DNA of 64,000 nucleotides from Methanobacteriota archaeon (GTDB lineage: Archaea > Halobacteriota > Bog-38 > Methanoflorentales > Methanoflorentaceae), in contig CAVRAO010000008.1 of NCBI GenBank assembly GCA_963719035.1, positions 1 through 64,000 on the forward strand, in the 5' to 3' direction. Position 1 is the first letter of the stretch. Every line of letters starts with the position of its first letter. The notes below the pieces were generated by a model. It ran no database searches, was not told where the DNA came from, and saw nothing but the letters and a program-made list of their open reading frames with translations. A program made the translations under genes and the position numbers. Shown here piece by piece: positions 5,462-35,859 of this stretch.

Positions 5462-5533
5462 CATCCGCTGCCTGAACACATGTACGATGTGTATATACAA
5501 TATTGGCAGGGTACGCATCTAAAAGATCTTTAG
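5462..5533 (+). pseudogene. C-terminal tail of SSV/pTN3-like tyrosine integrase (copy C1)
   Basis: Translates HPLPEHMYDVYIQYWQGTHLKDL*, homologous to 14463-14603, 34669-34731 and 35734-35859. Confidence 0.75.
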
Positions 5534-5774
5534 CTAACCATCCTGGACACATCTCTCGATGCTAAATGAATGCCAATCATCCTAGTCCTGTACCCTTCAA
5601 TGATGATGTGGGTTCATTGCGACAAATCGCAAGAATCAAATAATTCCCTGGCAACATACAGCATTTAGAAGCGACAAAAAACTGAAAAATGGTAAAGCAG
5701 TCAATCATGAAATCGCAGAAGTTGCGAGTGTCTACAGTCCCATTCGGGAAACATTTCCATTCTACGCATCAATT

Positions 5775-5993
5775 ATGAGGTCGATAGACGGCTATATCGA
5801 TTATAAGCGTCGGGAATATTGTAATGATGTTAAATGCCCGGTGCAATCGCTTTTGAACAAAGAAGTGGAAAAATCTCCTAAATATGAAGAAATTCGGGCG
5901 ATTTGTGCATCCAATTGTATGCATAGTACCTATGAATTTCACCATTGGTTAACAGAAAAGGGATATCTAATCGTCAGACCGAAGCAAAAATAG
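5775..5993 (+). CDS. small Cys/His-containing hypothetical protein
   Basis: Clean 72-aa ORF, YC..C..C...C..YEFHHWL. Confidence 0.7.
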   Translation: MRSIDGYIDYKRREYCNDVKCPVQSLLNKEVEKSPKYEEIRAICASNCMHSTYEFHHWLTEKGYLIVRPKQK

Positions 5994-6045
5994 TCCCAAC
6001 TTTTTTTTATAGTTGTGTATCATTCATGCTCGTGAGGTGTTACCC

Positions 6046-6871
6046 ATGGTAAATGCATATCTTGATATTGGAATCCAAAGCCGAATGAACCGGATAATCA
6101 ATCCGAAAGATAATCGGGTAGTTATGTTAGCGATAGACCATCCCTATTTTCAGGGGCCGACAACGGGCTTGCGTAATATGAGTAACACAATAAAAACACT
6201 ACTTCCCTATTGCGATTGTCTGATGACGACACGCGGGGCAGTGCGGAGCAATATTGCGTTAGAAGATGTCGGATCAAAACCCATAATGTTACGTGTTACC
6301 GGGGGAAATAGCGTTTTAAATGAAGATTTGAGTGATGAAAAGCTCACTGTTACAATTAAAGAAGCCATTCGAATGGATGCGGCCGGGTGTAGCTATCAGT
6401 GTTTTTATTGGCTCTGCTAATCAACAACAGACCATTGTAAATCTCACCGAAATGATCAATCAAGCCGAAGAATACGGAATTCCCGTTTTGGCGGTAACAG
6501 CCGTGGGGAAAAAGATGGCTCGAGATCTACGCTATTTAGCTCTTGCATCTCGTATTTGCCAAGATGCGGGGGCCCGAATTATCAAAACCTATTATTGTGA
6601 GGAATTTTCCAAATTAGTTGAAGCTGTTTCTCCAACTGCTGTCGTCGTTGCAGGAGGTAAGCATACAAGTCCTCCTGACTCTCTCCAAATGGTCTACAAT
6701 TCTATCCAGGCGGGTGCAGTGGGAGTTGATTTCGGACGAAATATTTTCCAGGATGACAATCCTATAGGCATGATCAAAGCAATTCGTTCAATTGTCCATG
6801 AAAATCATACCGTAAAGGAAGCCTTGGATATTTACAATGCATGTTTACCCGATGCATGCAAGCTCGACTAA
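6046..6871 (+). pseudogene. lsrF: LsrF-like class I aldolase/thiolase, frameshifted near 6385
   Basis: MLAIDHPYFQGPTTGL and RIIKTYYC..VVVAGG..GAVGVDFGRNIFQ split between ORFs 6013-6420 and 6332-6871 at a GGG run. Confidence 0.8.
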
Positions 6872-6913
6872 TTTTTTCAAATCTTTGTTAATTTATGCTC
6901 CACAGCGAATGCA

Positions 6914-7966
6914 ATGAAAGCAGCAGTCTATTACACGAATAGTGATATTCGCATCGAAGATGTCGAAGATCTATCAGTTGGACCAGGAGAAATCAAAGTC
7001 AAAATCATGGCTTGCGGAGTCTGTGGGTCGGATGTCATGGAATGGTATCGAATTAAGCGTGCTGGAAGACCCGGTGGTATTGGAGCTTTTGGACATGAAT
7101 GCACAGGAATCATTGCAGAAGTCGGTTCTAAAGTGGATCCGAAATGGAAAGTGGGAGATCGGGTCGTGGTGACCCATCATGTCGCATGTAACACTTGTAA
7201 TGCTTGTATGCGCGGGCATACGACTGCATGTGACACACTGCAAAAAACAAAATTTAAAAATGCGTTTGGGGCGTATGCAGAATATGTCGTTCTGCCCGAA
7301 ATCAATGTGGAGCGGGGTATTTTGCGCCTTCCCGAATCGGTTTCTTTTGAGATAGGAACCTTTGTTGAACCCCTTGGAAGTGTTTTACGAGGGCAACAAT
7401 GGGCTCCGACCTCAGATGGGCGATCAGTCTTAATAATTGGTGCCGGTTTAACCGGATTGTTGCACCTTCAAGTGGCCCGGTTGAATGGTGCGGGATTTAT
7501 TGCTATTTCCGATATTAATCCCGATCGATTGAAGATCGCCCAAAAATTCGGCGCTGATGCAACCATTTTCGCTACTGAAAATGTCCCAAAAAAGTTTAAA
7601 GAATTAAACGGAGGGTTGGGCGCGGACACCGTTATTATGACCGCACCGATTCCCATTTGTGTGAAACAGTCTCTTGAAGCAATCGGGCAAGGGGGTACGA
7701 TCTTATTTTTTGCCCCCACCAATCCTGAAATCCAATCCGAAATTAATCTCTGGAATCTGTGGCAAAAAGAAATTACTATCACCCACTCATATGGTGCCGA
7801 TTTCCATAATCTTTCAACGGCCTTAAAATGGATTCAGTATAAAAAAATTAATGTGACAGAAATGATAACCCATGTTTTTCCATTAAAAGAGACGGTTGAA
7901 GGTTTTCTACTGACTGCCCAACCGCGGGATGGTAGTTTAAAAGTTATCATCCATCCACAAGAATAA
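6914..7966 (+). CDS. zinc-dependent alcohol/polyol dehydrogenase (MDR family)
   Basis: GVCGSD, GHE, CNTCNAC..C structural Zn site, GAGLTG. Confidence 0.92.
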   Translation: MKAAVYYTNSDIRIEDVEDLSVGPGEIKVKIMACGVCGSDVMEWYRIKRAGRPGGIGAFGHECTGIIAEVGSKVDPKWKVGDRVVVTHHVACNTCNACMRGHTTACDTLQKTKFKNAFGAYAEYVVLPEINVERGILRLPESVSFEIGTFVEPLGSVLRGQQWAPTSDGRSVLIIGAGLTGLLHLQVARLNGAGFIAISDINPDRLKIAQKFGADATIFATENVPKKFKELNGGLGADTVIMTAPIPICVKQSLEAIGQGGTILFFAPTNPEIQSEINLWNLWQKEITITHSYGADFHNLSTALKWIQYKKINVTEMITHVFPLKETVEGFLLTAQPRDGSLKVIIHPQE

Positions 7967-8060
7967 CATATTTTTAGTCATTTTTCTAAAATGCTTAGTT
8001 TACACAATTGACCAGCTCATATCCAACACACCCGTCTCCTTAAAAGGCATTTACCTGCCC

Positions 8061-8582
8061 TCAAACTCCTGACGACTCGCTTTCAGTTTTCTGGTACACC
8101 TCCAGCGTTTTTTCATCAAAGCAAGCCACAACGATTTTTTCCAACTCCGGATATTGCTTTATGGCCAAGTGAAATTCGCGCAGAGCAATCCCGCTGGCCT
8201 TTTCGAGGGGATACCTATAAGCACCCGTGCTGATGGAAGGGAAAGCCAGGGATTTCAAATGATGTTGGTGCGCTAGGGCAAAACAGCTTCGATAACAGCC
8301 AGCCAGCAATTCCGGCTCATTGTGGCTACCCCCACGCCAGATGGGTCCGACCGTATGAATCACAAAACGCGCCGGCAAACGATAACCTTTCGTGATCTTC
8401 GCCTCTCCGGTTAGACACCCTCCCAAGGTGGCGCATTCTTCAAGCAATTGTGGTCCGGCCTGGTGATGAATCGCCCCATCAACCCCGCCGCCCCCCAACA
8501 AACTGTTATTGGCGGCATTGACGATGGCATCCACTGACAAAGTGGTAATATCCGCTTTGATAATCTCCAATTTTGCAGACAC
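8061..8582 (-). CDS. macro-domain O-acetyl-ADP-ribose deacetylase (YmdB-like)
   Basis: [38 protein letters not shown]. Confidence 0.92.
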
Positions 8583-8699
8583 TTGCTCCCCCTAAAAGTC
8601 CAAAAGTATTTCATTCAAACAACGGGCATTCGGCCCTCACAAGCCAAGTCCTGCTCGTCAAACAAAAAAAATAGAAAAGAAAGGCCCTCTAAGGGCCTC

Positions 8700-9960
8700 T
8701 TACCGCCTTATTAACAAATAGACTAATCCAGCCAAAAGTGCCGGTATCCCAAGTCCGAGCAGCGAAAACTCTGGAACGGGTTGGGCAGGCAAGCCTGCAA
8801 CTCCGCTCGTTTGAGCTGAAGGAACTGAAATTTCGAGCGCTGAGTTAGCATCTGAGACATTTGTGTGAGTAGATGCCTGCACCACTTTGGGCGTAATCGT
8901 GGCCTTCACCGTTGGCGTTGCTCCGTTGCGTTGCTGTCGCCTTGACTACTGGTTTTACAGCCGCCTTCACCGTTGGCGTTGCTGTCGCCTTGACTACTGG
9001 TTCTACGGCCGCCTTCACCGTTGGCGTAGCTGTCGCCTTGACTATTGGTTTGACTGTTGTCTTAGCCGCGGGCGTCTCCTTAGGTGCTGGTGTTGCAGTA
9101 GGCTTGACGGCTGGCGTCGTGGCTGTCCACGCCAGCTTGTCGGTGTTCCAGCTTCCACCGTTGCTAAAGTCAACGATTGAATTGTACTGCCTGTACACGA
9201 AGAAGCCGCCGTTGAGCCAGGCGGTCTTGGCTGATCCGCCTCCTGCAGCTGTGTTCCCTAGGTTCGCATTACCGCCGGCGTCGTTATACCAGGATCCGTA
9301 ACCCTCAAGAGCCCCGCCGGTCTCGTCCCAGCGCGTTTGTCGCACTGGCGCGTTACCGTCCTCTCCTATCCAGATCGCTGGATACTTTTCGTTGCCGGGA
9401 CCTGCACGCGAGTCCCACGCAATTTGAACATAGTAATTGTGGCCCGCGCGAAGAACGGTATCCATTGGTATGTACCATCGCGCGTGGCTGCCGCCGGTTG
9501 TAGCACGGTAGATGGTTAGGTAGCCCTGGTTAGCATCAAAGTTTTTGTCGTTGTTATAGTCGGTGTCGATCTCAATCATAAAGGCGCCGTACGCTTTGTC
9601 CCAGATTTTTTGGAAGCGCTGGCCTGTCGGTCCCGTGTAATGAAACCCTATCTCCCACGACGCTGTGTTTTGGTTATTTGTTGCACTTCCGGCCGGAATG
9701 GAGATAAAACCATTTTGCCCGGTATTACCCCAATACGTATAACCATTTGATTGAGTCCGAAATAAGCTTGGGGTGCTGACGTATGCGTTATAGCTGGTTC
9801 CTGCAGCTCCGTTATTGACCCATGTTGATCCCGCTTGAGGGGAATAATGTATAGTGGGGGTCGGCTGTGCAGCAGCCGGTGTGATTACCAACCCTGCAAC
9901 AAGCGACGAGGCCGCCAACAGAAGAAGTACTCTAAGGGCTTGTCTTTTTGCATGTTTCAA
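8700..9960 (-). CDS. secreted glycoprotein with Thr/Ala/Pro repeats and PEF-CTERM anchor, frameshifted inside the repeat
   Basis: Signal peptide in 8845-9960; VPEF+TM+RR tail in 8700-8909 in another frame. Confidence 0.75.
8902..9050 (-). repeat. about 3 copies of a 48-bp tandem repeat (KATATPTVKAAVKPVV)
   Basis: Unit gccttcaccgttggcgttgctgtcgccttgactactggttttacagcc; the first copy carries a 13-nt imperfect duplication. Confidence 0.9.
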
Positions 9961-10215
9961 CTAAACACCTCGGTCTGGTAGTTCAGTGTACCTAAAAACG
10001 ACGACGAGCATCTATTTAACAGTTCCTGCCGTCTATTTTTATAAAAAAGCTGAATAATTAATATAATCGCTTATTTTTTAATTTGAAGCGTATTAGATGA
10101 ATATACGTATATTCAACATAGTTTAGGGCTACCTACACAGTTTTAACGCGCAAAAATAGAATTGCCATCAGGAGCTCGTTCTGACGCCGTTTGCTAGCCT
10201 GAAACGACAACGCTA

Positions 10216-10623
10216 TTATTTTTCGTCGGGTAGCAGCGCACTTAACCCTATTCGTGGCCGCTTCGGGGTATCTTCAGTTGGTGGCCGCACCACGCGCCTG
10301 AGTTCGCCAGCGATCTGCTCGCGCGTTTCGTGCTGCAACTGTAGAGCGTCAAGCGCTTCGTCGGTTGCCGCATAGAATGCCTGGCGCAATTCGACCGAAT
10401 CAATGTTATCGACGTCTATGCTGCCGAGCGGTGTTTTTTCGGTCTGGATTCTACCCGATGGATCGCGATACTCGTGTATTAATGTGGTTTGGAGGTACCA
10501 CTCACCGCGACCCGGGCGCAGCTCTAACGGGATGGACTTGTATTCGACACTGACCGAGTACCAGCCGGGTTTGGCGTTATTAGTCACTCTCTCTTGCCCC
10601 TGAGATTCGCCCTCATTTCGCAT
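10216..10623 (-). CDS. hypothetical protein
   Basis: 135-aa ORF with plausible composition; no recognised motif. Confidence 0.55.
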   Translation of the reverse strand: MRNEGESQGQERVTNNAKPGWYSVSVEYKSIPLELRPGRGEWYLQTTLIHEYRDPSGRIQTEKTPLGSIDVDNIDSVELRQAFYAATDEALDALQLQHETREQIAGELRRVVRPPTEDTPKRPRIGLSALLPDEK

Positions 10624-10695
10624 CTCTTTTTGTCAGATCATAGGCACTGCGCGGGGTCGCCTGGCCTTCCCCCAGACTGAAAAACGCTCCTAATC

Positions 10696-11731
10696 CTAAA
10701 AGGTTTGGGTGGCAGCAAGCAGTTTCAGCACTATCGCCGTATCGCTTTCTGAGAGTGTGCCCATGCCGCAGGACGGCGTGAAAAGAAATTGTTCACGTAA
10801 CAGATTTTCAGCAATCCCTTTGCCGACAAATTCCTGGACTAGGCTTTCGTGTTTCAGCTTGAGGCTATCGGGCGTTTCGGTGCGCAGTTTCTCGACGTCA
10901 CTGGTCGGCACCAGGCCGGAAGCCAAGATCCCGCCGCGTTCCAAAAAGGCCTGAATCTTGTCAGGATAGAGCGCCACTTTAGCGCCATAAAAATACGAAT
11001 CAAAGGCAATGATGTCGACCTTGGTGCTGGCAAGCAGGCCCCAATCCATGTTGCCGCAGCAATGAACGCCCACCAACGCGCCGGCATTGTGAGAAATTTC
11101 AAAGACTTCATTCAGTCCATTAATCACATCTTCATCCTGAATCATCAGGTATGCGGCCGTGCCTAACGCGGATAGCACCGGCTCATCGAAGAAGATCATC
11201 GCTTGCTCAGTGTAAGGCTGCAATTGCTGAATTTGCCAGAGCGCCTTCATGCCCCAGACCTTTCAGCACAATGTCGCGATATTGTTCATCAAACCAGACC
11301 GAGCGGCGTTCCTGATCGGCCAGCCCTAAACCGAACGTAAAGGGGCCTGTAACCTGCCCTTTCAGAAATGGAAGTTTCATATTGGCAGCGGCCAACTGTC
11401 GCAACATGTAATACAGGCCGGCGGCGTACTCTTCGGAAATCGCAAAGGCGTCCACATGCTCCGCGACAAGGTGTTCATAAAACTCAACCATGGCGTTGGG
11501 CAGGTCATCATCAACCTGCACCCAGATGCGCTTCGCGACCTCATCAACTCGAATGCCCGGAAACGCTTCGGTGTACTGAGGGATCAGGGCTTCCTTAAAT
11601 GACCGTCTCGGCAACTGCGGCCAGGCTGGAATAGTGAGTGGAACTTGTTCAAGCGCCTGAAGAGCCTCTTTGGGGGTCAAATGGGGCATGCTGCCCATCA
11701 TGGTCGTCTGGTGTGCTGGAAGTACAGACAT
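10696..11731 (-). pseudogene. cobalamin-independent methionine synthase-like (MetE core) protein, frameshifted near 11250
   Basis: GSMPH, WPQLP, KGQVTGPFT, FDEP, GVHCCG, TPSCG split over two ORFs. Confidence 0.8.
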
Positions 11732-12066
11732 CGTAACAAATTTGCTATAAACGTTCAAATAGCTTTCAGCTGTTCTATATCTTGCCTCGGTCTATAATTG
11801 CTAAGGTTGTGTAACCGCTCCGGTCCAAGAAAGGTCCGATGCTTGGGCTAAATTTGCACCTCTCCAAGATGTTGAGGCATGTGAAAGAGGGCTCAAGCAT
11901 GCAAAAGGGGCTTGCATCGTCTATTTTGCTTTGAGCTTGCAATCACTTTTTTCGAATGTCGCCCTGTGGGGGCCTTTACAGGGCCCCGTTGATATGAAGT
12001 CACAGCTTCCACTACGCCTGATAGGGCCGTCTGCGGATTGCGCGTATCACAACGAAGCTGCCAGAA

Positions 12067-12312
12067 ATGCGCAGATTGAAAGCGAAAAAGGGGGATGAGA
12101 TCGCAGCGAAACACGGAGTCAAGATGGTTGGTTTTTGGATGGTTGATTCCGAGCACTTGACAGTTGCGGTGTTGGAAGCCCCGAACTATGAAGTTTTCCA
12201 AGCGTGGTCGATGGAACCAGAAGTAAGGAACATGAGTAATTGCGGCACGACTGAAGCCAAAGTGGCAATGACGATGGAAGAATACATACAGTCGATGATG
12301 CAGGCACAATGA
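12067..12312 (+). CDS. DUF3303/GYD-like small protein, probably 5'-truncated
   Basis: KHGVKMVGFW..EH..V.EAP pattern. Confidence 0.55.
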   Translation: MRRLKAKKGDEIAAKHGVKMVGFWMVDSEHLTVAVLEAPNYEVFQAWSMEPEVRNMSNCGTTEAKVAMTMEEYIQSMMQAQ

Positions 12313-12683
12313 CCTGCATTTTTTCTTTTTTAGTCTGTTTAAAAAATAACTACAGCCCTTCTGTTTGTTCAAACAAAAACAAACTCGCTATGAATAAATG
12401 CCCCTACTCTATGGGGCCTTTGGGCAACCACTTTATTATAATAACTATCTAAAGTCGTCGGTTTTGCTGCAGTTTTTACGAAGCATAAAGACGCTTTTTG
12501 AATGCAAAATCAAAAAATCGCTTACGCGCTTCTTTGCTTTTTTTAGGCACTCGGGGCAAACCGTGCTGTGTAAGTCTGTGAGCTTGTAGCAGTAATAGCA
12601 ACGTTTAATAGCTTATACTCTCCGTTTGCTCTACTATCCGGCCAGGGCCTCTCTTGATCCACTGTGCCATAGTCTGCCCTCTT

Positions 12684-12782
12684 TTACGGCATCCATATAG
12701 GTATGAAAAGGAACATGAAGGCTATTAGTATCAGCACGAGGCCCAAGAAAAAAGCTACTGTCGCAATCCTTCTTCTATCCAT
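12684..12782 (-). CDS. unannotated 32-aa single-TM micropeptide MDRRRIATVAFFLGLVLILIAFMFLFIPIWMP
   Basis: AGGTGG RBS before ATG; basic N-terminus followed by hydrophobic helix. Confidence 0.55.
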   Translation of the reverse strand: MDRRRIATVAFFLGLVLILIAFMFLFIPIWMP

Positions 12783-12805
12783 TTAAGCCACCTTATTAAG
12801 TCTCG

Positions 12806-12892
12806 TTAGAACGACACGTTTGCATACACTTCTTGCAAGTCCTGGTCATTGAACTTCAAGTAAATCGCTGTTTTGTTGATGTTTGAATGGCC
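12806..12892 (-). pseudogene. XerA/XerC-like tyrosine recombinase C-terminal tail (X1)
   Basis: GHSNINKTAIYLKFNDQDLQEVYANVSF*: GH..T..Y catalytic box II. Confidence 0.8.
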
Positions 12893-12904
12893 CTTGCTCG
12901 TCAT

Positions 12905-13088
12905 CTAATCGATTAATGCCCTGTCAACGACCTCTGGTGGGATTGGCTTCTGCTTCTTGAGATGCTCGTTAATCAGCTCGAGCTATGTAGTCACTTAAAG
13001 AGACGCCTCCCCTCATATCATTGATTCTCTTTAAGACGGGCTCGGTCAGCTCGATAGTCACCGCTGTTGTAGAGGGTTCTGTAGTCAT
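12905..13088 (-). pseudogene. ribbon-helix-helix (CopG-like) protein, frameshifted
   Basis: GGAGGTGA RBS; MTTEPSTTAVTIELTEPVLKRINDMRGGVSLSDYI / ELINEHLKK. Confidence 0.55.
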
Positions 13089-13142
13089 TCTTCTTTCACC
13101 TCCTTTTCAAGTCTATTTTGATACTGATATGCGCCACAAATC

Positions 13143-13313
13143 CTAGAACTGTACGTTTGCATATGCTTCTTGCATATCCTTGTTATTAAACTGCACGCAG
13201 ATTGCTGTTATATTGATGTTAAAATGCCCCAATACTTGCTGTAGTCTGCGTATGTCGACTCCCTACCGCACGCTGTTTATGGCAAAGCTGTGCCTGAATG
13301 TATGCGGATGGAT
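13143..13313 (-). pseudogene. XerA/XerC-like tyrosine recombinase C-terminal fragment (X2)
   Basis: IHPHTFRHSFAINSVR*GVDIRRLQQVLGHFNINITAICVQFNNKDMQEAYANVQF*: HxxR and LGH motifs, internal stop, Tyr replaced by Cys. Confidence 0.88.
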
Positions 13314-13347
13314 AAATAAATAGCCTGAGCGTAGTACCCTAACTGTG

Positions 13348-13575
13348 TTAGTCTTTATTTCTGCTGTAGTAGTAATAGGTGATAATTAATCCAATAAGTA
13401 GGAGTATTACGCCAGCGACTGCTAATGGCAATCCATATTCACTTGGTAGTATTGTCCTGCCCATAATTTCCCAAGTACCTGCTGGATACCCAAGAACTGG
13501 GGGCAATCCGATCAAAATAAAAATCACGCCAGGAATTATGAAAGCTACTCCGGGCTGTTTCCATAGCTTAACCAA
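13348..13575 (-). CDS. small two-TM membrane protein (copy A1)
   Basis: GGAGGTGA RBS, TTG start; near-identical to 22765-23007. Confidence 0.75.
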   Translation of the reverse strand: MVKLWKQPGVAFIIPGVIFILIGLPPVLGYPAGTWEIMGRTILPSEYGLPLAVAGVILLLIGLIITYYYYSRNKD

Positions 13576-13620
13576 TGCCTATTCACCTCCCTTTGCTCGC
13601 GGGAAAAAATTAACCAAAAA
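13399..13620. repeat. about 220-bp inverted duplication of 22720-22941
   Basis: Nucleotide match read by eye with one coding substitution (Thr/Pro). Confidence 0.92.
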
Positions 13621-13718
13621 AAACATGATAATGGTCTGGCTTAAGCGTTATCTTTTTCGAGCTTTATTAGAGTGTAAATAAGGGGGCCCTTGTTTACAGA
13701 TGGGCCTGAATATAGTAG

Positions 13719-13887: not shown

Positions 13888-14029
13888 CGCTTTTCACCCC
13901 CTTTTCTAATATGTGGTCGAAAAAATAAATCAAAAACGTAAGATGGTGATAGTTTAGTTAAGTGTTACCTTTCTTTTAAGCGAAGGGCACGGGCTAAGAC
14001 GATCTAATAGTCGCGCTGTGTAACGAAGC

Positions 14030-14462: not shown

Positions 14463-14603
14463 TTAATCCGGTTTCAATCCTATGTCTTTCCAAAATTTCA
14501 TGTAAACATCATATACGTGTTCAGGCAACGGATGCTTGTAATGCTTCCAATCGACTCCGCTGACGCCGTGCGTCATAATATACGCTCTATTTGATTGATC
14601 CCA
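14463..14603 (-). pseudogene. C-terminal tail of SSV/pTN3-like tyrosine integrase (copy C2)
   Basis: WDQSNRAYIMTHGVSGVDWKHYKHPLPEHVYDVYMKFWKDIGLKPD*; MTHG..HY corresponds to the H/W and catalytic Tyr box. Confidence 0.8.
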
Positions 14604-15226
14604 CTATAATCGTACTAAAAACAAAAACTTAAGTCAGAGCCCTCCGCAACCTTCTCCTATGCCAATCGATCATCGAACTGAGTCTATGTCTGGAATTCCA
14701 GCAGCCGAGATCACAACCCCCGTTAAGGATACGCGGTAGAAAACTCAGTATTTGTTACGGGCACGGCCCATAACATTGAGGGAGAACAATACTACCTATG
14801 GCTTGTATTATTCGATTACAACGCGAACCGCCATTACCCACAAGAAGGACCCATTGCTGTCTCCTCAAACGGTCAATGGGAGATGACTGCATTTTTTTCG
14901 AGCAGCGGAAGGTATGATATTACTGCACTCGCTGCAGACAAAAACGCCAACGAGATTTTCATACTATACCAAGCGGCCAGTGAGGCGAGTGGTGATTATC
15001 CGGGGTTGCCTGCCCTTCCTTCAGGATGCATAACGCTGGCTTCAGTCACCGTCTCTAGAACGGAGGGCAGCGGATGCTGATAATTGCCACATAGGTTCTA
15101 GCAAAAACCTGTACTAGGCTCCGCCCGCAAATTTGCAGTGCACACCGTGCTTAACGTCGTGGTACGCTCATAATATAGGCACCATTCTTGTCAAATGCTG
15201 TCGGTTGCTTCATTTTCTTTCAGAAG

Positions 15227-19769: not shown

Positions 19770-20015
19770 ACTATGTGTGACTTTACACAAACTCGCTTTG
19801 TTTACGGTATCTTGTCGCGCTGTCCCCCCTTTGTTCACAGAATTTCCTTAGATCTCCGTTTGCGATACGAGCATTATTGCGCAACAGTCGGACTTCGTGA
19901 TGCCCACGCTATTATTGCACACTTGCATGTGATATGAGACCGTGAAACGTGTAAAGCAAAAAGAGCGAACGCAGACCAACGCTCCCACGGGTGCTGTGCT
20001 GCGTCTGTGAAAGCG

Positions 20016-27932: not shown

Positions 27933-27995
27933 GGTTCACCTATCTTTTTGTCTTCCTTGTGGGGGTGGCAAAGCAGCTACATAGCCGACTCACCG

Positions 27996-28871
27996 TTACG
28001 GTGTGTGTGCATGCAGCGACTGCAATTCCTGTACCAGAGACGCCGCCTGCGCGTACTTCGGCGCTTGCGCTTCACACGTCCGTACAAGGTCAGTCTTGTC
28101 AGGCGTTCCACGCAACGCGCAACCATCCGTGCGGGTGACGAACGTCGACTGCAGTGTCTTAGCCGCGTTGTCGTACTTGCCGTACTTCACCTGGAGCGTG
28201 GCAGCATCGATAACGGCAATAAGCGCGATCTTCGTGCCCGGGTAGAAAGCAGAATTCGTCGTACTCTTCACCGTGTTCTTGAGCGTGGCGAGGCTTGCCA
28301 AGACAGATGTCTTTGTAGGTTCGTTCGGCACAGGCTGTGGCGTAAAGTGGACATCGTCAAGGTAAGCCGAATTATAGTCGTACTTACTAGTGCCGGTCAG
28401 TATCCAAAAGAGCGTGTGTTCGCCGGCAGGAATGTCGACCGTTGCAGTGGCGAAATTCGGCCCGGGGTTTATGGGGCGAGAACATGTTGCAACCACTTTA
28501 CCGTCGAACACTAACACGAAGTTCGAGTACGTGCTCGTTTGGTCGCTAATGTCTGCGCACCACTTAAACGAGAGAGTTCCTGGACCGTGAACCGAGGTAT
28601 ATAGCTGTGACTCTTGGCTGCCTACTTTGTCGAGTGCTACCCAATCCAGCGAAAAATCGGTATTATTCCACACCGTGCAATGGTCTCGTGTATAAAACCA
28701 CGACCACCCGAGCCGCGGGCAATCTAATGCTTCCGCTATTTGCGCAGATGTCGGGTTAGAAATCGTCGTTATTGTAGCCTGCGCCTTCAACACGCCTGCT
28801 CCGGTCGAACCGACAAAAAGGAGGGCGAGGGCAAGCGCGACCAGCGTAGTGCGTAACCGCATCGATGTCAC
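27996..28871 (-). CDS. secreted protein, beta-rich domain plus C-terminal helical (FIMAH-like) domain
   Basis: Signal peptide; GPGTLSF.W..AYLDDV; DGCALRGTPD. Confidence 0.7.
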   Translation of the reverse strand: MTSMRLRTTLVALALALLFVGSTGAGVLKAQATITTISNPTSAQIAEALDCPRLGWSWFYTRDHCTVWNNTDFSLDWVALDKVGSQESQLYTSVHGPGTLSFKWCADISDQTSTYSNFVLVFDGKVVATCSRPINPGPNFATATVDIPAGEHTLFWILTGTSKYDYNSAYLDDVHFTPQPVPNEPTKTSVLASLATLKNTVKSTTNSAFYPGTKIALIAVIDAATLQVKYGKYDNAAKTLQSTFVTRTDGCALRGTPDKTDLVRTCEAQAPKYAQAASLVQELQSLHAHTP

Positions 28872-29274
28872 CTGGAAGAATTAGTCGTACCACGAGGGCG
28901 GAACATTTAAACTTTGCCTTGCCGAATATTGTCAATATTGCCTTCTTTTATCAATCTGATGGCTGCACGGATCCTGTTATAGCAACCTTTATTAAAACTA
29001 AATATCTAGTGATTCGTTTTGTGAAGAAGCGGCGGCAGATAACACCTTCGTCTCTGTTGTGCATCACGAGGCACCACATTATGACGCAATCGGACGGTTG
29101 TCATTCTACCCTCAGCATACCTCTTGTCGCTACCGTCGCCACGAGAGGGGAACTACTACCCGGCACAACACGCTGCGGCTACGCCACATAGCGACGCTCT
29201 CGAACATACAGCTTTAGTAGCCGTGACGAGTCGTTCATGCCGCCATTTTACTTTACCGATCGTAGGTGACTTAA

Positions 29275-30015
29275 ATGAAACAACAACTCGCAGCATTATT
29301 TCTGGTTGTTGTGCTTGCCGCCTCGGTGCTCACTGCTGCAGACCTCGCAGCAGTGAGCACTGCGACAGCAGCCACAACAAGAACGGCCACGACGCTCGAC
29401 TTGCACGTGACGCATTCAGCCAATCTCTACACTTTCTACGGTACGCTCAGCAAAACCAAGGGTATGGGCGGTATCAAGGGTGGGAAGGTTGCCCTGCAGG
29501 TATCTGCCGACAATGAGCGTTGGAGGGATGCGTTGCTTCCAACGCGCACCAACGCCGTCGGTAACTACACGTTTCATCTGCTGCTCCAACCGGGACACAT
29601 CTACTACTTCCGCACCTCCTTCGCCGGCAGCGAAATGTACCTCCACGCGTTCAGCCCAGTCGTGACTGTGCCTGCCCCCACGAACTCCGAACCCATCCCT
29701 ACAACGCTCACCTTGCGGGCGGAAAAGGGCTGGAATGTTTTTGTGACGCATTGGGACTTCTACGGCACCCTCACTGCTAACGGCAAACCCATACCTTACG
29801 CGAATATCGGAATAGAGTATTGCTACAAGCGACCTGATGGCCAGATGCTCTGGGTCTTGCAGCAGGTGATAAAAACCGACAAAAACGGTAACTACCACTG
29901 GTCAGAGTGGTATTATTTTAGCGTTGACTACTACTACCGCACCTGGTTTGAGGGCCCGTCGGAGTTTCCTGAGTATGCGGAAGCGTACAGTCCAATCGTG
30001 ATGGTCAGTATCTAG
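29275..30015 (+). CDS. secreted protein with two Ig-like repeats
   Basis: Signal peptide; repeated TTL.L..FYGTL..T...GNY..YY.RT.F.G..SP.V. Confidence 0.8.
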   Translation: MKQQLAALFLVVVLAASVLTAADLAAVSTATAATTRTATTLDLHVTHSANLYTFYGTLSKTKGMGGIKGGKVALQVSADNERWRDALLPTRTNAVGNYTFHLLLQPGHIYYFRTSFAGSEMYLHAFSPVVTVPAPTNSEPIPTTLTLRAEKGWNVFVTHWDFYGTLTANGKPIPYANIGIEYCYKRPDGQMLWVLQQVIKTDKNGNYHWSEWYYFSVDYYYRTWFEGPSEFPEYAEAYSPIVMVSI

Positions 30016-30042
30016 CCGAGTCCAAATGTATAAAATGCGGTT

Positions 30043-30082
30043 GAGCGTGGTCGTGGCTCCGCGCTCGCCAACTCCTTTTTTT
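30043..30082 (+). terminator. hairpin plus T-tract
   Basis: gagcgtgg..ccgcgctc followed by a T7 run. Confidence 0.5.
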
Positions 30083-30237
30083 GGTGTTTGCCCGGTTCTT
30101 CCCCCGCCGATAAATCATACTAAAAGCCGACTTCAGGTGTAGTCATTCAAGGTACGTATCATAATCATTAAGCTCGTGGCGCCGACAGTGCACATGCTAG
30201 GTTAGGTACTAAACATTACTCATGCTGTGACGGTGCG

Positions 30238-30600
30238 ACGCGGCATCACGAGCTGCTGAAAGTCCACCGCAGCAAAATCTCGCTCCATCGTGCTAAAGCG
30301 GGCTACCATTATCCAACGGTGCGGCTGCCCCACCAGTTTTCGTATCTCGCTGGGTTATTTACACGGATCTACCAGACCATGCATCAAGGGGCGCTTGCGT
30401 TTCTCGTCGTTGTTGCTCCAACAGACGCTTCAGATGACGCAGCTGGAGGGGGTAAAAACGAGGATGCGTATCCAAAAACCTCCGTCTTCACACGGCGGAG
30501 GTCGCCGGTGCGAATCCGGCCGAGCCCATTGTTCTTTTTACAATCAGCCACACTAGAGCCATCCTCAACCTGCGAAAAAGGAATGTCCTCACTACGTTGA
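30238..30600 (+). mobile_element. SSV/pTN3-like integrase N-terminal remnant reading through the att site
   Basis: (ACG)RHHELLKVHRSKISLHRAKAGYHYPTVRLPHQ..GALAFLVVV..SVFTRRRSPVRIRPSP; the last peptide is the translated tRNA half. Confidence 0.8.
30482..30528 (+). mobile_element. att core: 3' half of tRNA-Val(CAC), no 5' half
   Basis: CCGTC-TTCACAC-GGCGG anticodon arm, AGGTC, GCCGG-TGCGAAT-CCGGC T-arm (one T>G change), CGAGCCC-A acceptor strand. Confidence 0.9.
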
Positions 30601-30687
30601 GAAAACTGCCGGGCACTCGTGCTCAAACTCGCAGTTTGGCTCTAAGTAACTTCGTTTTTTCGCTAAGGTGCGTTAAGACCAAATCAC

Positions 30688-31005
30688 TTAATGACGTCTC
30701 AAATGTCCGACTAATCCCGATATACCGAGCCGTATCAAGAGTAAATTCTCGACTGACACGGTATCGTCACCGCCTTTGATCCTCCCAATGAGTGCGTCCA
30801 AGTCGTTTAAAACTGATTCGGCCATCTGCAGCTCTTCGGAACGGAAATCATGGTCGTATATCTTACTGTCTAATGCTGCCCTCTGACTAATTGGCTCTGA
30901 AGCGACATTAATCGGTTCGTGAAGAGCACCACAGTTAACGCAAAATTGTCCGGGAGTGAAAACTGCGCTTTCGCCGCAAAATCTGCACTTCTTCTTATTA
31001 GCCAT
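30688..31005 (-). CDS. zinc-finger hypothetical protein
   Basis: CRFCG..CVNCG; AGGTGG RBS. Confidence 0.65.
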   Translation of the reverse strand: MANKKKCRFCGESAVFTPGQFCVNCGALHEPINVASEPISQRAALDSKIYDHDFRSEELQMAESVLNDLDALIGRIKGGDDTVSVENLLLIRLGISGLVGHLRRH

Positions 31006-31290
31006 AATCCACCTTTTGTAAATTGAAAAAGAATTCGTCGTTTCTCACTTATACAAGAGGTGATTCGTGGCTTAACTATTCCTATCCCTTTTTCCCAAAA
31101 AAGCCCCCCAAGGTGTTATCCTATTGCCCCCATAATGAAGTGATGCGGACGTTGTGACATCGTGCCGTCGAAAGACTCCGCTATGCCCTCCTTAATCAAT
31201 ATCTCCGCTTGCAGTTCGTCCAGATATTGATAGGTATCCGGTTGATGATCATTCCACTCGATTAAGAACTTAACCATAAACGCCATTTTT

Positions 31291-31494
31291 CTAACGTGAA
31301 GCTTCAAATAGCTCATTTACTTTTTTGCATCCATCATTATTAGGGGGGTTATAGAAACACAACTTTTCTGGGACTCCTTTAGAATACTTAACGCATCCCC
31401 AGCATTGAGTAAACAGCCGCGCACCGTGTTTATCTCTGTAGGCTTTGCATAACTCAGCTGCTCTTTCCAGAGGGATTGAGATTTCTGATGGCAT
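31291..31494 (-). CDS. small Cys-rich hypothetical protein
   Basis: C..QCWGCVKYSKG..C..GC. Confidence 0.6.
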   Translation of the reverse strand: MPSEISIPLERAAELCKAYRDKHGARLFTQCWGCVKYSKGVPEKLCFYNPPNNDGCKKVNELFEASR

Positions 31495-31611
31495 AATTAA
31501 ACCTATTCTAGTTTTGCCAATTTAGTTTTTTTCTACTATGACGCCGACATGCAGCATTGGAAAGACACAGAATTCGCGGTTGCTCAAGAAATAGGAGGAG
31601 GATAACGAAGC

Positions 31612-32436
31612 ATGATAACCAAAAGAGACGATAGGCGATACAGGTTTACTATTGCCATGGCATCACATAGGACTCCGTGGGCCCGGATAGCGTTTAAGCA
31701 AGTGGCGAAAGCGTGTAGATTCGATCGTAATCATGTGACTCAAATCATGCGGGCAACCGACTCCCCCGAAGCGGCATTAGAACGCATCAAAACATACTTT
31801 GAGGGTCAATCTCGCGTCTATTGGGCGAACGCACTCAGAATCGTATGGAAAGAGACGGGAAAAGCGGCTATCGCGGTCATGCACGACGTCCTCACCGGCA
31901 AGGACTTTTTTAGAGATTATTCCATGATCACCGAGACCCCCAAAGACCCGGTGAGAGAGGGCGTTCAACTGACTTGGGATCAATTCGTCGAGGATAAGAT
32001 CACGTCGAGAGCGAACAAGGTCGTCGGAGTCACTCATACGACATACGGACACATCCAAGACGTCATGGCCCAAGGCGTCAAGAACGGATCAACTCACTAT
32101 GAGATCGGGCAGCAAATCGAGAACAAACTCGACGAACTTTGGAAGGCCGGGGGTGAGACGATCTCAAGGACGGAAGTTAACTCGGCTATGAACGCGGCAA
32201 TGCTGGAGGATGCGAGAGCAATGGCTCCAGATTTAAATAAGGTTTGGGCGTGTGCGTTCTTGAACAGCCGTCAAGATCACATGGACGCCGACGGTCAGTC
32301 AGTCCCTCAATCAGAGCCTTTCATAGTCGGCGTAGAGGAAATGATGGAACCCGGAGACGATTCAGCTAGCGCCGATCAAATAGTCAATTGTGCTTGCACG
32401 ATGTTCTTTGAGCGTCCAGAGGAAGCCCCCGACTAA
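31612..32436 (+). CDS. phage head morphogenesis / minor capsid protein (SPP1 gp7/Mu F-like), orphan
   Basis: TISRTEVNSAMN, KVW, R.DH..ADGQ, PF.VG, PGD, VNCAC; AGGAGG RBS. Confidence 0.85.
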   Translation: MITKRDDRRYRFTIAMASHRTPWARIAFKQVAKACRFDRNHVTQIMRATDSPEAALERIKTYFEGQSRVYWANALRIVWKETGKAAIAVMHDVLTGKDFFRDYSMITETPKDPVREGVQLTWDQFVEDKITSRANKVVGVTHTTYGHIQDVMAQGVKNGSTHYEIGQQIENKLDELWKAGGETISRTEVNSAMNAAMLEDARAMAPDLNKVWACAFLNSRQDHMDADGQSVPQSEPFIVGVEEMMEPGDDSASADQIVNCACTMFFERPEEAPD

Positions 32437-32973
32437 GGAGGATAGAAGTAACAACGATCACGACTGATGAACGATTGAACACGGCTCTTGCGACTCTTCG
32501 CAAGACCACAATCAAAGAGGTCAGATTCGTTGACTTTCTCGGGAATATAGTCAACTCCTTTTTCTACTTTTGTTTATTTCCAGTGAAAGCGAACTTGTTG
32601 AGATTCTTTACCTGCGCATAGAGGTTCAAGTGATTTTGACGTAAAGTCTCTTTCATCTGATCTTTCAAGTCGGCTAAAAAAAACTCCAGTGCTCTCCCGA
32701 TATCTAATACCAGAATGAATGCTGCTATGTGGAATGACCTGTAGCCTCACCGAAGCGATTATTCGCTGTACCGTACCGCATCAGCGGGCGGCAGTGCGGC
32801 GGCGGCTTAGTTCTAATTCTGTTGTCGAGTGTAATGCTTCTGGTAGGCGGCGGCGTAGTTCCACCGTTCTTCGGCATAGCCGCAGGAGTAATCGCTTTGC
32901 TGCTTAATTATCAAACGACATCTCAACACGATCAGCTGTTTGAAATGTCTGTCAAGGCCGGAGGCAATAAATT

Positions 32974-33492
32974 ATGAAAACTGTCGTCGTCTACGCAAGC
33001 AAGTATGGGTCCACGAAGGGCATAGCGGAGTTCATCGCCGAAAAGCTGCGGCAGCAGGGGACGCAGGCAGACGCCCAAGAAGTCGGCCAGGTCCACAACC
33101 TCGAAGACTACGATGCCTTCGTCATCGGAAGTGCCGTCTACATGGCCCACTGGCTGAAGCAGGCGGCGGAGTTTGTGATGCGAAATCGCGTCGTGTTGGC
33201 CAGTCATCCGGTGTGGTTGTTTAGTAGCGGCCCGCTTGGTACCGAGACCAAGGACGCCCAAGGTCGAGATGTGCTCGTCGCTGCGGCGCCGAAGGAGATC
33301 GCTGAGTTCAAGGTCGCTATCAACCCCCGTGACCATCGAGTCTTCTTCGGAGGGCTGGATGCCAGCAAAGTCGCGTTCGGTGATCGGACGGTCCGAAAGA
33401 TGCCCGCTGCCCGCACGCTTTTTCCCGAGGGCGATTTCCGCAACTGGAACTACATCGATGCTTGGGCCACCGGCATCGCCCGGGCATTTTAG
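32974..33492 (+). CDS. flavodoxin-domain protein (HemG-like, Flavodoxin_5)
   Basis: YASKYGSTKGIAE, GSAVY, WLFSSGP, GDFRNW. Confidence 0.9.
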   Translation: MKTVVVYASKYGSTKGIAEFIAEKLRQQGTQADAQEVGQVHNLEDYDAFVIGSAVYMAHWLKQAAEFVMRNRVVLASHPVWLFSSGPLGTETKDAQGRDVLVAAAPKEIAEFKVAINPRDHRVFFGGLDASKVAFGDRTVRKMPAARTLFPEGDFRNWNYIDAWATGIARAF

Positions 33493-33576
33493 CGCTCTCT
33501 TTCTTCTCTTTTTTTAAACATATTTGTAGAGTATGAGAAAGGCTTAATGTAGAGTATGAAGTAGCATAGTATTACA

Positions 33577-34056
33577 ATGGTAGTTTGTCCTACTTGTCAC
33601 CACGAGCATGCAGGCCCGCTTAAAACGTGCCCATCTTGCCGTGACCGAATAGCAGTCTGGAAGCAGAAGCACCAGGGAAAGGACCGCTTGTATAAGCGTA
33701 AGTATGCTGCCAAAAAGCGTGGGCCCGAGGGCTACGATGAGCTTTTTTACAGCACGAGAGGACAGCAGGATAAGTGGGATAAATGGGTAGGACTTGACCC
33801 AGATGAAGTAATACTTTGGACTGGGGCTACGCGTGCAGAACTCTGGGAGGAAGTTGCACACGTAGTCTATGAGGAAAATGTAAGAGATAGATGCTTGGGC
33901 GTTTTAAGTGACACTTTGGCCGGTGTCCGAGCTGACCACCTACAAGCAATGACAGACAAAGGAAAGCAGACGGAGTGCCTTATTAGGATCAAAAAGATAC
34001 AGCTACACCTAACAAACGTGCTACGAGAGAACGGTGTTATTTGGCAGGAGGACTAG
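33577..34056 (+). CDS. hypothetical protein with N-terminal Zn finger (virus/plasmid-like)
   Basis: CPTC..CPSC; tandem with 34034-34267. Confidence 0.6.
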   Translation: MVVCPTCHHEHAGPLKTCPSCRDRIAVWKQKHQGKDRLYKRKYAAKKRGPEGYDELFYSTRGQQDKWDKWVGLDPDEVILWTGATRAELWEEVAHVVYEENVRDRCLGVLSDTLAGVRADHLQAMTDKGKQTECLIRIKKIQLHLTNVLRENGVIWQED

Positions 34057-34069
34057 CAGTATGCCCAGC

Positions 34070-34267
34070 AAAGTAAGTTGGATGCACGATAGTGATGACA
34101 GGATGCTAGCACGTTATCAGTACCTTTACAAGAAAGCACTTAAGGTCAAAGCCTTCCAACTGCAGAAAATACAAAGGGCAGAGACTCATGAAGTGTGTGT
34201 CTCTGTGCTATTAAAAGCAGTGGTAATATGCAATCATGCCCTTAAAGAGATGGGCTTTGAAGAGTAG
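34070..34267 (+). CDS. small hypothetical protein
   Basis: GGAGG RBS upstream of MPSKV. Confidence 0.5.
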   Translation, partial: KVSWMHDSDDRMLARYQYLYKKALKVKAFQLQKIQRAETHEVCVSVLLKAVVICNHALKEMGFEE

Positions 34268-34307
34268 AAGCAGGCCCCTGAGCAGTTCTTATTGGAAAAA
34301 TAAGCTG

Positions 34308-34392
34308 TTAAAACGGCACGTTTGCATGCGATTCATGCACGTCCTTGTCGTTAAACTGCAGATTAGATTACTGTTATATTGATGCTAGAATG
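34308..34392 (-). pseudogene. XerA-like recombinase C-terminal tail (X3)
   Basis: HSSINITVI / LQFNDKDVHESHANVPF*, homologous to X1 and X2, frameshifted. Confidence 0.72.
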
Positions 34393-34668
34393 CTGCTAAA
34401 CGCAGCGCTTACGGACAGCGCCAAAGAGGTAAGCGTGCTGCTGCAAAAACTGGGAGCATTAAAGAAAGCCATCGTCCATACCAGTCCAATGGCCCTAGGC
34501 AGGCTTCTGCCGCACCCGTCTGTAGCAGAATCGTGCTCGCGTTCCCGGCCAGCTAAGTGACGATTGGGAGTGCTAAACTCCCATACCTTCCTTTTTTTCA
34601 CGAGTAATCTTGTTTAAAGTCGCAATCCCCTCAGGATTCCGACCCAAGACCTACATAACAATTATCTG

Positions 34669-34731
34669 TATCCGCTGCCTGAGCACGTGCATGATGTCGA
34701 CATGAAAAACTGGGGAGGCGTGTCTTTTTAA
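34669..34731 (+). pseudogene. integrase C-terminal tail (copy C3)
   Basis: YPLPEHVHDVDMKNWGGVSF*. Confidence 0.7.
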
Positions 34732-34791
34732 GGCTTGACCCTAGTTGTTAGGTTTTAATGCTGGCTCTGCTGACTGATAATGTGGGAAACC

Positions 34792-35621
34792 TCATGCTTG
34801 CGGAGGGCCTTGCTCAAGCAGCTCTTGTATTCGCTCTTCCGCTGGAACTGACTGTTTCCACAAGATTTCGAACGTAGAGACGAGATACTCAGCATAGACA
34901 GGATCATCGGTCCAAAGAGCTGTCATCGGTGCGTTCAGTGCGGCGCTTGCGGCTATATGAATTGGCATGATACTATGTTTTCGGTCGTACACCACGAACA
35001 TCACGCCATGCCTATCGATATGGCGTACTTCTTCACCTAATCTTAACATCTCACGCACATGGTCGATAAATGTGTATGAGATATCAATTATCGCCCTCAC
35101 TTTGCCTCCCTGCTGAATGAATGCTGCTGCGGCATCGTTAATGCCAAACAAAGAGGCAACGACCGTCGCCAGTCCGGGTGCGGCTATGAGCCATTCCTTC
35201 TTCATCGATTCGATCAGGGGTATTGCGACCGCGACGAGTTCCTTAGTGCTCTTGATGATTTTGAACGTCGTCACCTCATCTGCCGGCCGAAGCCGCTGCT
35301 GCCGTGCCAATTCCTGCAGCTCCCGCTTTCGCACCTCCATCTCGCGGAGTTCGCTCTCGTGCTTCTTCACTGCAGATTCAAGGGCAGTGTCGAGGTCGAC
35401 TGCCGCGTAGACCGTCGGGGCGTCAAGCGACGGATGCACCATACCCTTATCAATGAGGCTCGTGAGCGTGCGGTGTACGTCTTCACGATATGTGTGAAGC
35501 GATTTAGCAAGGGGGAGGGGGTCTTAGGGCCGTACTTGAGCAGGTGAAGGTACGTCTTTGCCTCCTTTTCGCTGAGCCCGAAACCGATCAAACGGCTGGT
35601 GAACTCGTCGTCAATGGTCAT
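34792..35621 (-). pseudogene. TrmB-family transcriptional regulator, frameshifted near 35505
   Basis: FGLSEKEAKTYLHLLKYGP HTH start and TrmB-like C-domain in different frames. Confidence 0.8.
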
Positions 35622-35733
35622 CTGGTATCACCTCGTACGTGAGCTGAATGATACATATATGTTAGCTTCAAAAAAGAAGAGAAGAGATCAAGCATGCAGT
35701 GTCGGGCGTTACTGTGCTGTACTTCAATGTTTC

Positions 35734-35859
35734 AGGAGCTACATCCTTACACACGGCGTTTCTGAGGTCTATTGGCGATTTTACAAACATCCCCTTCCTG
35801 TGCACGTGCATGATGTTTATATGCAGTATTGGAAAGACGTAGAATTCAAATCAGGTTAG
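35734..35859 (+). pseudogene. integrase C-terminal tail (copy C4)
   Basis: RSYILTHGVSEVYWRFYKHPLPVHVHDVYMQYWKDVEFKSG*. Confidence 0.8.

Follow-up and report, generated by a model that had tools for sequence, protein, structure and literature searches.

We describe truncated integrase genes in an archaeal genome assembly (G000; 2.19 Mb, 13 contigs) from the family Methanoflorentaceae. The whole stretch analysed, referred to here as the window, covers the opening 64 kb of contig C8 in that assembly. Over its first 40 kb the window is a mosaic of blocks of 0.4-2 kb, which occupy scattered locations in same-genus genomes, and among these blocks lie the last codons ("tails") of genes belonging to one family of tyrosine integrases. 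An earlier note on the same DNA had reported four such tails; positions and translated peptides agree with ours, and a stop codon ends each copy. Tail E-values in the window were obtained with a 126-nt profile made from 13 long tail copies, by which measure the four far exceed chance matches. Model positions refer to a second, 480-nt DNA profile, which covers the 3' third of the gene, was built from six intact genes and was run over G000 and 21 loci (denoted L). The integrase pieces are as follows.

5459-5533, + strand: short integrase tail, copy 1; RHPLPEHMYDVYIQYW; from close to the catalytic Tyr codon through to a stop; E 1.1e-8; model positions 418-468
14463-14603, - strand: long integrase tail, copy 2; WDQSNRAYIMTHGVSGVDWKHYKHPLPEHVYDVYMKFW; WDQSN to stop; E 6e-34; model positions 348-474
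34663-34731, + strand: short integrase tail, copy 3; YLYPLPEHVHDVDMKNW; E 1e-8
35734-35859, + strand: long integrase tail, copy 4; RSYILTHGVSEVYWRFYKHPLPVHVHDVYMQYW; RSYILTHG to stop; E 1.1e-26; model positions 365-476
4021-4078, - strand: degenerate tail with in-frame stops; E 0.41 (126-nt profile) and a weak tblastn match; forms inverted repeat I5 with 35810-35850
31537-31579, + strand: very degenerate tail end, weak; tblastn YDADMQHWKDTEF; E 0.055 (126-nt profile)
268-324, + strand: small internal integrase fragment without 3' end; nhmmer with the 480-nt profile, model positions 57-113, E 1.7e-4
19777-19896, - strand: integrase fragment without tail, residues ~322-361, containing GDLRKFCEQ

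The 5' end of copy 2 adjoins a block at 14609-15065, and the degenerate tail at 4021-4078 sits exactly between blocks 3545-4004 and 4083-4542, which in genome G010 map apart and in differing orientation. The flank downstream of copy 3, which is the 3' end of a TrmB-like gene, is common to tails with differing 5' parts. The tail end at 31537-31579 stands ~1 kb downstream of a tRNA-Val attachment (att) fragment, where the 3' end of an integrase is expected, and the fragment at 19777-19896 lies downstream of the second copy of a small gene (gene X), a layout also seen in L022. The view that the window has no integrase middle region was not quite right, given the small non-tail pieces at 19777-19896 (-) and 268-324 (+). 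ARAGORN called no tRNA gene in the window.

The integrase family and its 3' remnants

Full-length relatives of the tails are present twice in G000, at C2 16701-18014 (-; int#1) and C2 147563-148837 (+; int#2). Both genes encode divergent tyrosine recombinases: the match to PF00589, over residues 200-295, scores 27.8 bits against a gathering cut-off of 27.1, and that to the PHROG_1 integrase family has an E-value of 1.1e-8. A search of PDB sequences with int#1 returned chance-level matches only, with no relative at E <= 1. The strings TGLR, HYVPLHP, DLRKF, THG and (K/E)HY are conserved across six aligned full genes; judged by eye, they may contain the catalytic R..K..H..R..H/W..Y residues, in which the Tyr lies near the C-terminus.

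Interrogating G000 by tblastn with the four tail peptides revealed 34 sites, two of which, on C5, duplicate copies on C12. Just two of the 34 end long open frames (438 and 425 codons). In total, 32 non-redundant tails stand against two full-length genes, and many of the tails contain stops or frameshifts. The duplicated stretches (C5 1350-3522 and C12 43796-45968) are identical and carry two tails; they represent either a true duplication or an assembly repeat left unresolved.

The census with the 480-nt profile over G000 and the 21 loci gave 76 rows: 10 full genes, 55 pieces anchored at the 3' end, 8 without the 3' end and 3 duplicates (L014 repeats L016). G000 alone accounts for 2 full, 27 3'-anchored and 6 other rows, to which the 126-nt profile adds two weaker tails. 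Integrase matches in same-genus genomes number 430, and all 18 genomes are positive. Among the best 150 of these 430, from which the shares of each class were read, approximately one third span most of the protein and about half are C-terminal pieces; N-terminal and internal pieces make up some 25, of which no fewer than 14 adjoin a C-terminal piece and are halves of frameshifted genes. Were the fragments a product of ordinary decay, as the earlier note put it, all parts of the integrase should be equally common; with 55 3'-anchored pieces to 8 without the 3' end, they are not. The C11 pieces at 73157-73729 and 91834-92193 were considered as one gene split by an insertion. This was rejected, because the two overlap by a few codons with differing sequence and have core genes (carB-like) between them, and we treat them as separate fragments.

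Pairwise nucleotide identity among 12 long tails ranges from 56 to 83% (median 70%), with 0.26, 0.16 and 0.47 differences per site at codon positions 1, 2 and 3, respectively. The concentration of differences at third positions means that divergence happened while the genes coded. This pattern supports independent origins of the tails from working genes and agrees with their earlier description as independent, diverged remnants. Variation at third positions in the tail core, that is, after the presumed catalytic Tyr, is 0.41, only slightly below the value of 0.51 for the neighbouring preceding codons; there is thus no sign of a DNA-level site beyond coding constraint, and the expectation that the core is conserved as DNA was not borne out.

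Attachment at tRNA genes and a tRNA-Asp-like palindrome

The position of the intact genes is informative. int#1 has its start at the 3' end of tRNA-Val(cac), and the reading frame stays open through the tRNA. Ahead of int#2 stands a 109-nt sequence that duplicates, at 95% identity, the 5' half of tRNA-Asp along with its upstream flank; the intact tRNA-Asp lies 4.5 kb beyond this displaced copy. A full integrase directly follows tRNA-Asp in five other loci (L027, L038, L039, L050 and L060), and in L050 and L060 a tblastn alignment or open reading frame (ORF) is continuous from the tRNA into the integrase. L020 holds a 5.5-kb island with tRNA-His at one end and, at the other, a repeat (96%) of the last 56 nt of that gene. 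The integrase of this island, which is frameshifted and overlaps the tRNA-His repeat at its start, and the four tails that follow it, separated by single genes, are all on one strand. A tRNA part is also found in the window.

30482-30528, + strand: 3' part of tRNA-Val(CAC), anticodon stem to acceptor end; att repeat of an integrated element

The DNA immediately preceding the integrase in L001 and L002 matches this segment, and contigs of run X19 have the tRNA-Val 5' half at this location. A population variant in run X1 carries the joint 23589->30472, which omits 6882 nt. The ends of islands are repeats of tRNA parts that begin at the anticodon arm, and the att core is the anticodon arm beside the integrase 5' end, not the tail. 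It had been supposed that the attachment site of the element (attP) lies in the integrase 3' end; what we find is that the genes abut tRNA-Val, tRNA-His or tRNA-Asp and that the island borders are tRNA parts. A tRNA-like attP in the tail or in the region preceding it was rejected as well, since local alignment of five integrase 3' regions to tRNA-Asp was no better than that of shuffles; only units with the hairpin described below matched, over 10 nt. A solo tRNA-Asp 3' half (89% identical) is found at C2 476228-476264 in G000, 320 kb from the tRNA gene and near tails at 459.8 and 479.1 kb, and may be an att remnant displaced by rearrangement.

A 22-bp palindrome (6-bp stems, 7-nt loop, then GAC) precedes many of the short tails by 15-40 nt and stands ~27 nt ahead of the tail core. 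The earlier note had not mentioned it, and it makes a sharper junction than the tails do. Two examples occur in the window.

5414-5435, + strand: 22-bp palindrome, left edge of the conserved hairpin-plus-tail unit
34624-34643, + strand: variant hairpin, 5-bp stems then CCGAC, upstream of copy 3; spacing and spacer like those of the hairpin-plus-tail family

The stems and the following GAC are identical to the anticodon arm of tRNA-Asp. Allowing up to one mismatch, the pattern is present in 17 of the 18 genomes and gives 88 strand-hits, compared to none for a reversed control. The stems stay constant but the loops do not (most often TAATACA, with some two changes away from the loop of the tRNA), which is the pattern of a protein-binding inverted repeat and not of an RNA stem. 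Exact copies in metagenomes number 34. In fifteen the tail core comes at +40, +51 or +60-62, which makes at least three junction types; the remaining 19 run into other DNA without a tail. Overall, there are at least three or four types of palindrome-to-tail junction, all starting 10-27 nt after the GAC. The ~40 nt to the left of the palindrome are also conserved in many copies, and window positions 5396-5506 match G010 822011-822121 at 81%, with nothing beyond. The exact hairpin has no match in viral contigs, and a scan of the window at Rfam gathering thresholds found no family. The left motif and hairpin might be a very diverged integrase 3' region, to which they are ~50% alike by eye, yet nhmmer matches of the 480-nt profile do not reach into them. 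A literature search short of full texts turned up no account of 3' integrase stubs or of the palindrome, and none combining 'Methanoflorens' with 'integrase'.

Adjacent tails within 6 kb of each other in G000 are on the same strand in 11 of 12 pairs; the same is true of all eight tails in L016 and all five in L020. The stacking of tails in direct orientation beside cargo, reported earlier for the window, thus stands. A single full integrase heads the direct array in L004, L020 and L069, and in L069 it is followed by two tails and two palindromes. One integrase likewise heads the array of L016. L060 has tRNA-Asp, then integrase, 5.4 kb of cargo and a palindrome, and the palindromes of L016 (12373, 13548, 15471 and 17239, all +) lie between modules. 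Integrase-less modules with att-type cores, in direct orientation and in tandem with an integrase, as expected of an accretion array, are therefore found in L016, L069 and L060. The cargo itself shows no common orientation relative to the tails: the ORF after the tail is co-directional rather than convergent in 5 vs 3 cases (of 8) in L016, 3 vs 2 in L020 and 2 vs 3 in the window. On this count the comparison of the islands to an integron-like array could not be upheld.

Comparison of flanks shows how the units have been joined. For 57 palindrome instances with both flanks available, 28 pairs have both flanks in common, 14 only the left and 2 only the right, which indicates that the palindrome travels with the upstream cargo and that the tail begins the next unit. 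The fasciclin cargo behaves as a discrete block: in G010 and G004 it recurs with the palindrome next to it and unrelated DNA beyond, and the right flank of G004 recurs in G006 behind another left flank. The fasciclin and gene-X left flanks are each joined to 3-4 different right flanks (four for the gene-X left flank of the window). Tails are co-inherited with their downstream flank while the 5' truncation differs, as in C12_43949 with C2_423353, and in C8_34669 with C11_115914 and L020_10934. The tail C11_107140 is chimeric: it resembles C11_115914 at 85-96% through the upstream flank and as far as the core extends, and C2_479162 at ~85% thereafter. Finally, the joint 36785->34670, which goes back to the first bases of a tail core, occurs in runs X1 and X4, from different studies; the main arrangement is several-fold deeper. 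This joint may be a circle, a tandem copy or the gene order of another strain, alternatives between which the joints do not distinguish. All four runs compared with the window are contigs, and parts that they leave uncovered are uninformative. The proposal that the tail is a recombination handle therefore holds in part: recombination has taken place in or beside tails (the chimera, the reassortment of flanks, the joint at 34670), but the tail does not contain the att site.

Proposed accretion of small modules and other explanations

What the tails preserve is the eroded 3' end of many different tyrosine integrase genes; with the palindrome, they mark module joints in variable islands. As to their cause, we propose site-specific accretion of small integrative modules, with the integrase eroding from its 5' side, an explanation to which we give an even chance of being correct. 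Integrase genes would arrive on small integrative elements; the geometry of the loci shows that these insert at tRNA-Val, tRNA-His and tRNA-Asp, and they probably also do so at tRNA-derived secondary sites. The same geometry places the recombination core at the anticodon arm, with the integrase starting beside the core and reading into the element. Elements might then pile up in tandem, in the same orientation, by site-specific accretion; older units would lose the core-proximal 5' part of the integrase, and the 3' end would stay, with one or two cargo genes behind it. The outcome would be one integrase plus repeated stub-plus-cargo units inside a single tRNA-bounded island. The palindrome is a candidate att-like core between modules, in keeping with the joining of upstream cargo plus palindrome to different downstream DNA, and sequence patterns show reassortment of modules both at the palindrome and inside the conserved tail patch. 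By analogy to bacterial cis-mobilisable elements, integrases acting in trans may move the integrase-less modules. A bolder proposition, which strikes us as rather doubtful, is that the palindrome and the adjoining stub serve as a secondary site dedicated to recombination, comparable in Archaea to attC or pdif, at which tRNA-Asp-type integrases would excise, shuffle and re-insert one- or two-gene modules; the islands would then be true cassette arrays.

Several observations weigh against accretion. A BLAST-short comparison of the flanks of all 5'-truncated tails to 38 tRNAs gave no match at E <= 0.05, and there is no internal tRNA-His repeat within L020. With no tRNA repeats beside the tails, each unit must have lost its att repeat, the palindrome subfamily excepted. 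The palindrome itself is not a simple att repeat of tRNA-Asp, because its loops (mostly TAATACA) differ from the tRNA-Asp loop and because, in both G000 and G010, the palindromes found to the right of tRNA-Asp run opposite to the tRNA. Conservation is weaker in the N-terminal half of the protein, so that solo N-terminal fragments may have been under-detected. The 5' truncation points are spread over model positions 222-423, and most of the peak of 5' ends at 407-423 is one amplified hairpin-plus-tail family. For the latter reason, a sharp crossover at the catalytic Tyr codon was dropped from consideration: the cluster does not represent many independent cuts, and a site-specific cut inside the integrase gene is unsupported. 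The left side of the joint 36785->34670 has neither tail nor palindrome in the window, most of the compared genomes are metagenome-assembled, where repeats may lead to misjoins, and the reason for one-sided erosion is one that we infer.

On a purely passive explanation, the tails are the last remnants of dead integrases and survive as the spacer beside retained cargo genes; tails and palindromes would be inert, and the mosaic a product of ordinary illegitimate and homologous recombination. Remnant lengths have a broad distribution skewed to short stubs, as repeated truncation predicts. Stops or frameshifts in many tails, joints at block borders without tail or palindrome (39076->37709, for example) and the failure to find an Rfam family or known motif all accord with this possibility. 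It accounts poorly for the fact that similarity between copies ends at, or within a few nt of, the palindrome in many independent pairs, for the 88 strand-hits against a control of zero, for invariant stems with varied loops, as in a protein-binding inverted repeat, and for the three or four junction types, at the least, that all begin 10-27 nt past the GAC. We consider passive decay unlikely, while allowing it an appreciable share of the probability. It is also conceivable that the hairpin-plus-tail unit (~125-190 nt, including the ~40-nt left motif) is a non-autonomous repeat in its own right, similar to a miniature inverted-repeat transposable element or a repetitive extragenic palindromic sequence, or else an operator or promoter carried along with cargo, which arose once from the 3' end of an integrase and spread. 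Conservation of the unit between flanks that both differ (window 5396-5506 vs G010 822011-822121) and its dozens of copies in the genus and in metagenomes fit this notion, as would the resemblance of the palindrome to the operator of a dimeric regulator. Yet neither terminal inverted repeats nor target duplications were seen, the palindrome occurs with several tail junctions and, in 19 of 34 metagenome copies, without a tail, and it is linked to the left flank far more often than to the right (14 vs 2 pairs). We judge this explanation very improbable.

The remaining alternative places the recombination site in the conserved integrase 3' end, so that circular tail-plus-cargo cassettes are inserted, integron-style, at the 3' end of a resident integrase. 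Same-orientation arrays right behind one full integrase, without internal tRNA repeats (L004, L020 and L069), are what such a process should produce. The chimeric tail switches inside the tail, in runs from two separate studies the joint going back to 34670 lands exactly where the tail core begins, and the pTN3 integrase is reported to recombine short homologous segments (PMC5495485, in its accessible part). Against these stand the att sites, which lie at tRNA anticodon arms beside the 5' end of the gene, and the third positions of the core, which vary nearly as much as their neighbours (0.41 vs 0.51). The 5' ends of long tails are scattered, unlike the prediction from a fixed crossover; tails are co-inherited with the downstream flank while the upstream DNA varies; there is no tail on the left of the 36785->34670 joint; and cargo orientation is mixed. 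We regard tail-to-tail exchange as improbable, and less likely than accretion.

Accretion has partial precedents among archaeal integrases. Like the SSV-type ("suicidal") enzymes, those described here are archaeal tyrosine integrases with tRNA targets, tandem integration, elements that become fixed and integrase pieces at borders; the attP lies within the ORF in both, the frame running through the att site or tRNA in int#1, L050 and L060, and the L020 ORF overlapping the tRNA-His repeat. SSV-type integrases are partitioned into a short int(N) and a long catalytic int(C), in contrast to the abundance of the last 20-60 residues here, and the present family is mesophilic and methanogen-related, not hyperthermophilic. 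No int(N)/int(C) border pair was found: gene X, not int(N), stands at the tRNA-proximal border of the L020 island, no att repeat or int(N) was found for int#1, and the N and C pieces on C11 overlap and enclose core genes. By its att geometry, int#2, with the displaced tRNA-Asp 5' half and upstream flank before it, can be likened to the pTN3-like integrases, whose att sites are tRNA 5' halves (accessible text of PMC8371274). An anticodon loop with palindromic stems also fits the 7-bp overlap and core-site layout given in that portion of the source, and a role in shuffling chromosomal segments, suggested here, has been proposed for pTN3-like integrases too (PMC5495485, available part). Tandem integration of elements, loss of integrase genes after integration and exchange of modules between tandem elements are already known (PMC8371274, as far as accessible, where She et al. 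2001 is cited for 'gene capture in archaeal chromosomes'). What sets the present case apart is how many stubs there are, how very small the modules are, the polarity of erosion and the mimic of a tRNA arm at the point where flanks reassort.

In integrons, as here, an integrase heads an array of small, directly oriented cassettes, each with a short and partly palindromic boundary; the present arrays probably differ in having an integrase not of the IntI type and no attI/attC architecture, and they do differ in their mixed cargo orientation, which leaves no common promoter logic, in lying within a tRNA-bounded island, and in boundaries that derive from the end of the integrase gene and a tRNA arm. 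Streptococcal integrative and conjugative elements (ICEs) undergo site-specific accretion and give rise to cis-mobilisable elements (CIMEs). Accretion of phage-ICE tandems has likewise been described (PMC13651849, part available). CIMEs resemble the units described here in being integrase-less modules bounded by att-type sites, in tandem with an integrase element at a tRNA or fixed site and, in principle, mobilisable in trans. The differences are that the present system is archaeal, that its modules are very numerous and measure 0.5-2.5 kb, that an integrase stub opens each module, and that the internal sites mimic a tRNA anticodon arm with varied loops.

If accretion is the correct explanation, then uncultured methanogen-related archaea, for which metagenome record titles and run labels point to peat and freshwater sediment as habitat, would build much of their variable genome from very small modules. 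With a cargo of surface proteins, regulators, redox enzymes and virus remnants, the modules would be stacked at tRNA-type sites, and the scar at each joint (an integrase stub with or without the tRNA-arm palindrome) would provide a simple marker for mapping horizontally acquired modules. The system would also offer a testable substrate for the question of whether archaeal tRNA-targeting integrases can mobilise integrase-less DNA in trans, in the manner of bacterial accretion systems and integrons. Should only the ordinary part hold true, it would still be an unusually clean case of polar integrase erosion after serial integration.

Cargo and repeated genes

The cargo of the window includes a zinc alcohol dehydrogenase, a macro-domain protein, a fasciclin/PGF-CTERM protein and a Mu-F-like virus protein, along with several genes without a Pfam family. 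Two cargo genes flank tails 3 and 4.

34792-35621, - strand: TrmB-like regulator gene, frameshifted into two ORFs (helix-turn-helix part 35621-35367, remainder 35442-34792)
35870-36805, - strand: fasciclin/PGF-CTERM cargo block; PF02469 at 4e-39, plus PGF-CTERM

The TrmB-like gene is convergent with copy 3 and belongs to a multi-copy family that is often convergent to integrase 3' ends. Its name, given on the strength of a helix-turn-helix-like N-terminus, is presumptive. A convergent trmB had been described at this place; the convergent gene is indeed present, but it is frameshifted, and its long piece has no Pfam match. The fasciclin gene was correctly recognised, as both the PF02469 match and the PGF-CTERM show. 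Short direct repeats at the ends of the fasciclin block resemble oligo-T terminator regions.

Gene X, which encodes a small secreted protein without a Pfam family, is present in the window as an inverted repeat pair (4966-5379/20019-20432, 82% identical); it is multi-copy in the genome and lies beside tails or palindromes in several genomes. A second inverted pair (13375-13620/22720-22965, 97% identical) consists of two copies of a small membrane-protein gene.

The rubrerythrin-ferritin block at 37678-39115 has constant ends and different neighbours in six same-genus genomes. A tail precedes it in G001 and follows it in G009 and G012; in the window it has no flanking tail. Contigs of runs X4 and X1 join 39076->37709 within this block, as a circle or tandem copy would. 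The adjacent gene at 39131-39720, which is TATA-box-binding-protein-like, has many copies (82-95% identity) in every same-genus genome searched and occurs at island edges.

Downstream of the tRNA-Val att fragment, the ORF at 31612-32436 encodes a Phage_Mu_F domain (5.6e-9) and is left over from a virus-type element. Frameshifts seem to have split two genes into pairs of overlapping ORFs, at 6013-6871 (aldolase-like) and 10696-11758 (methyltransferase/decarboxylase-like); both names were given by eye. Outside the window, the element behind tRNA-Asp and integrase in the metagenome contig L060 (1519-4875) contains two ORFs, starting MPRDVFISYQHND and MPLDVFISYHHDD, which are putative TIR-domain defence proteins by their appearance.

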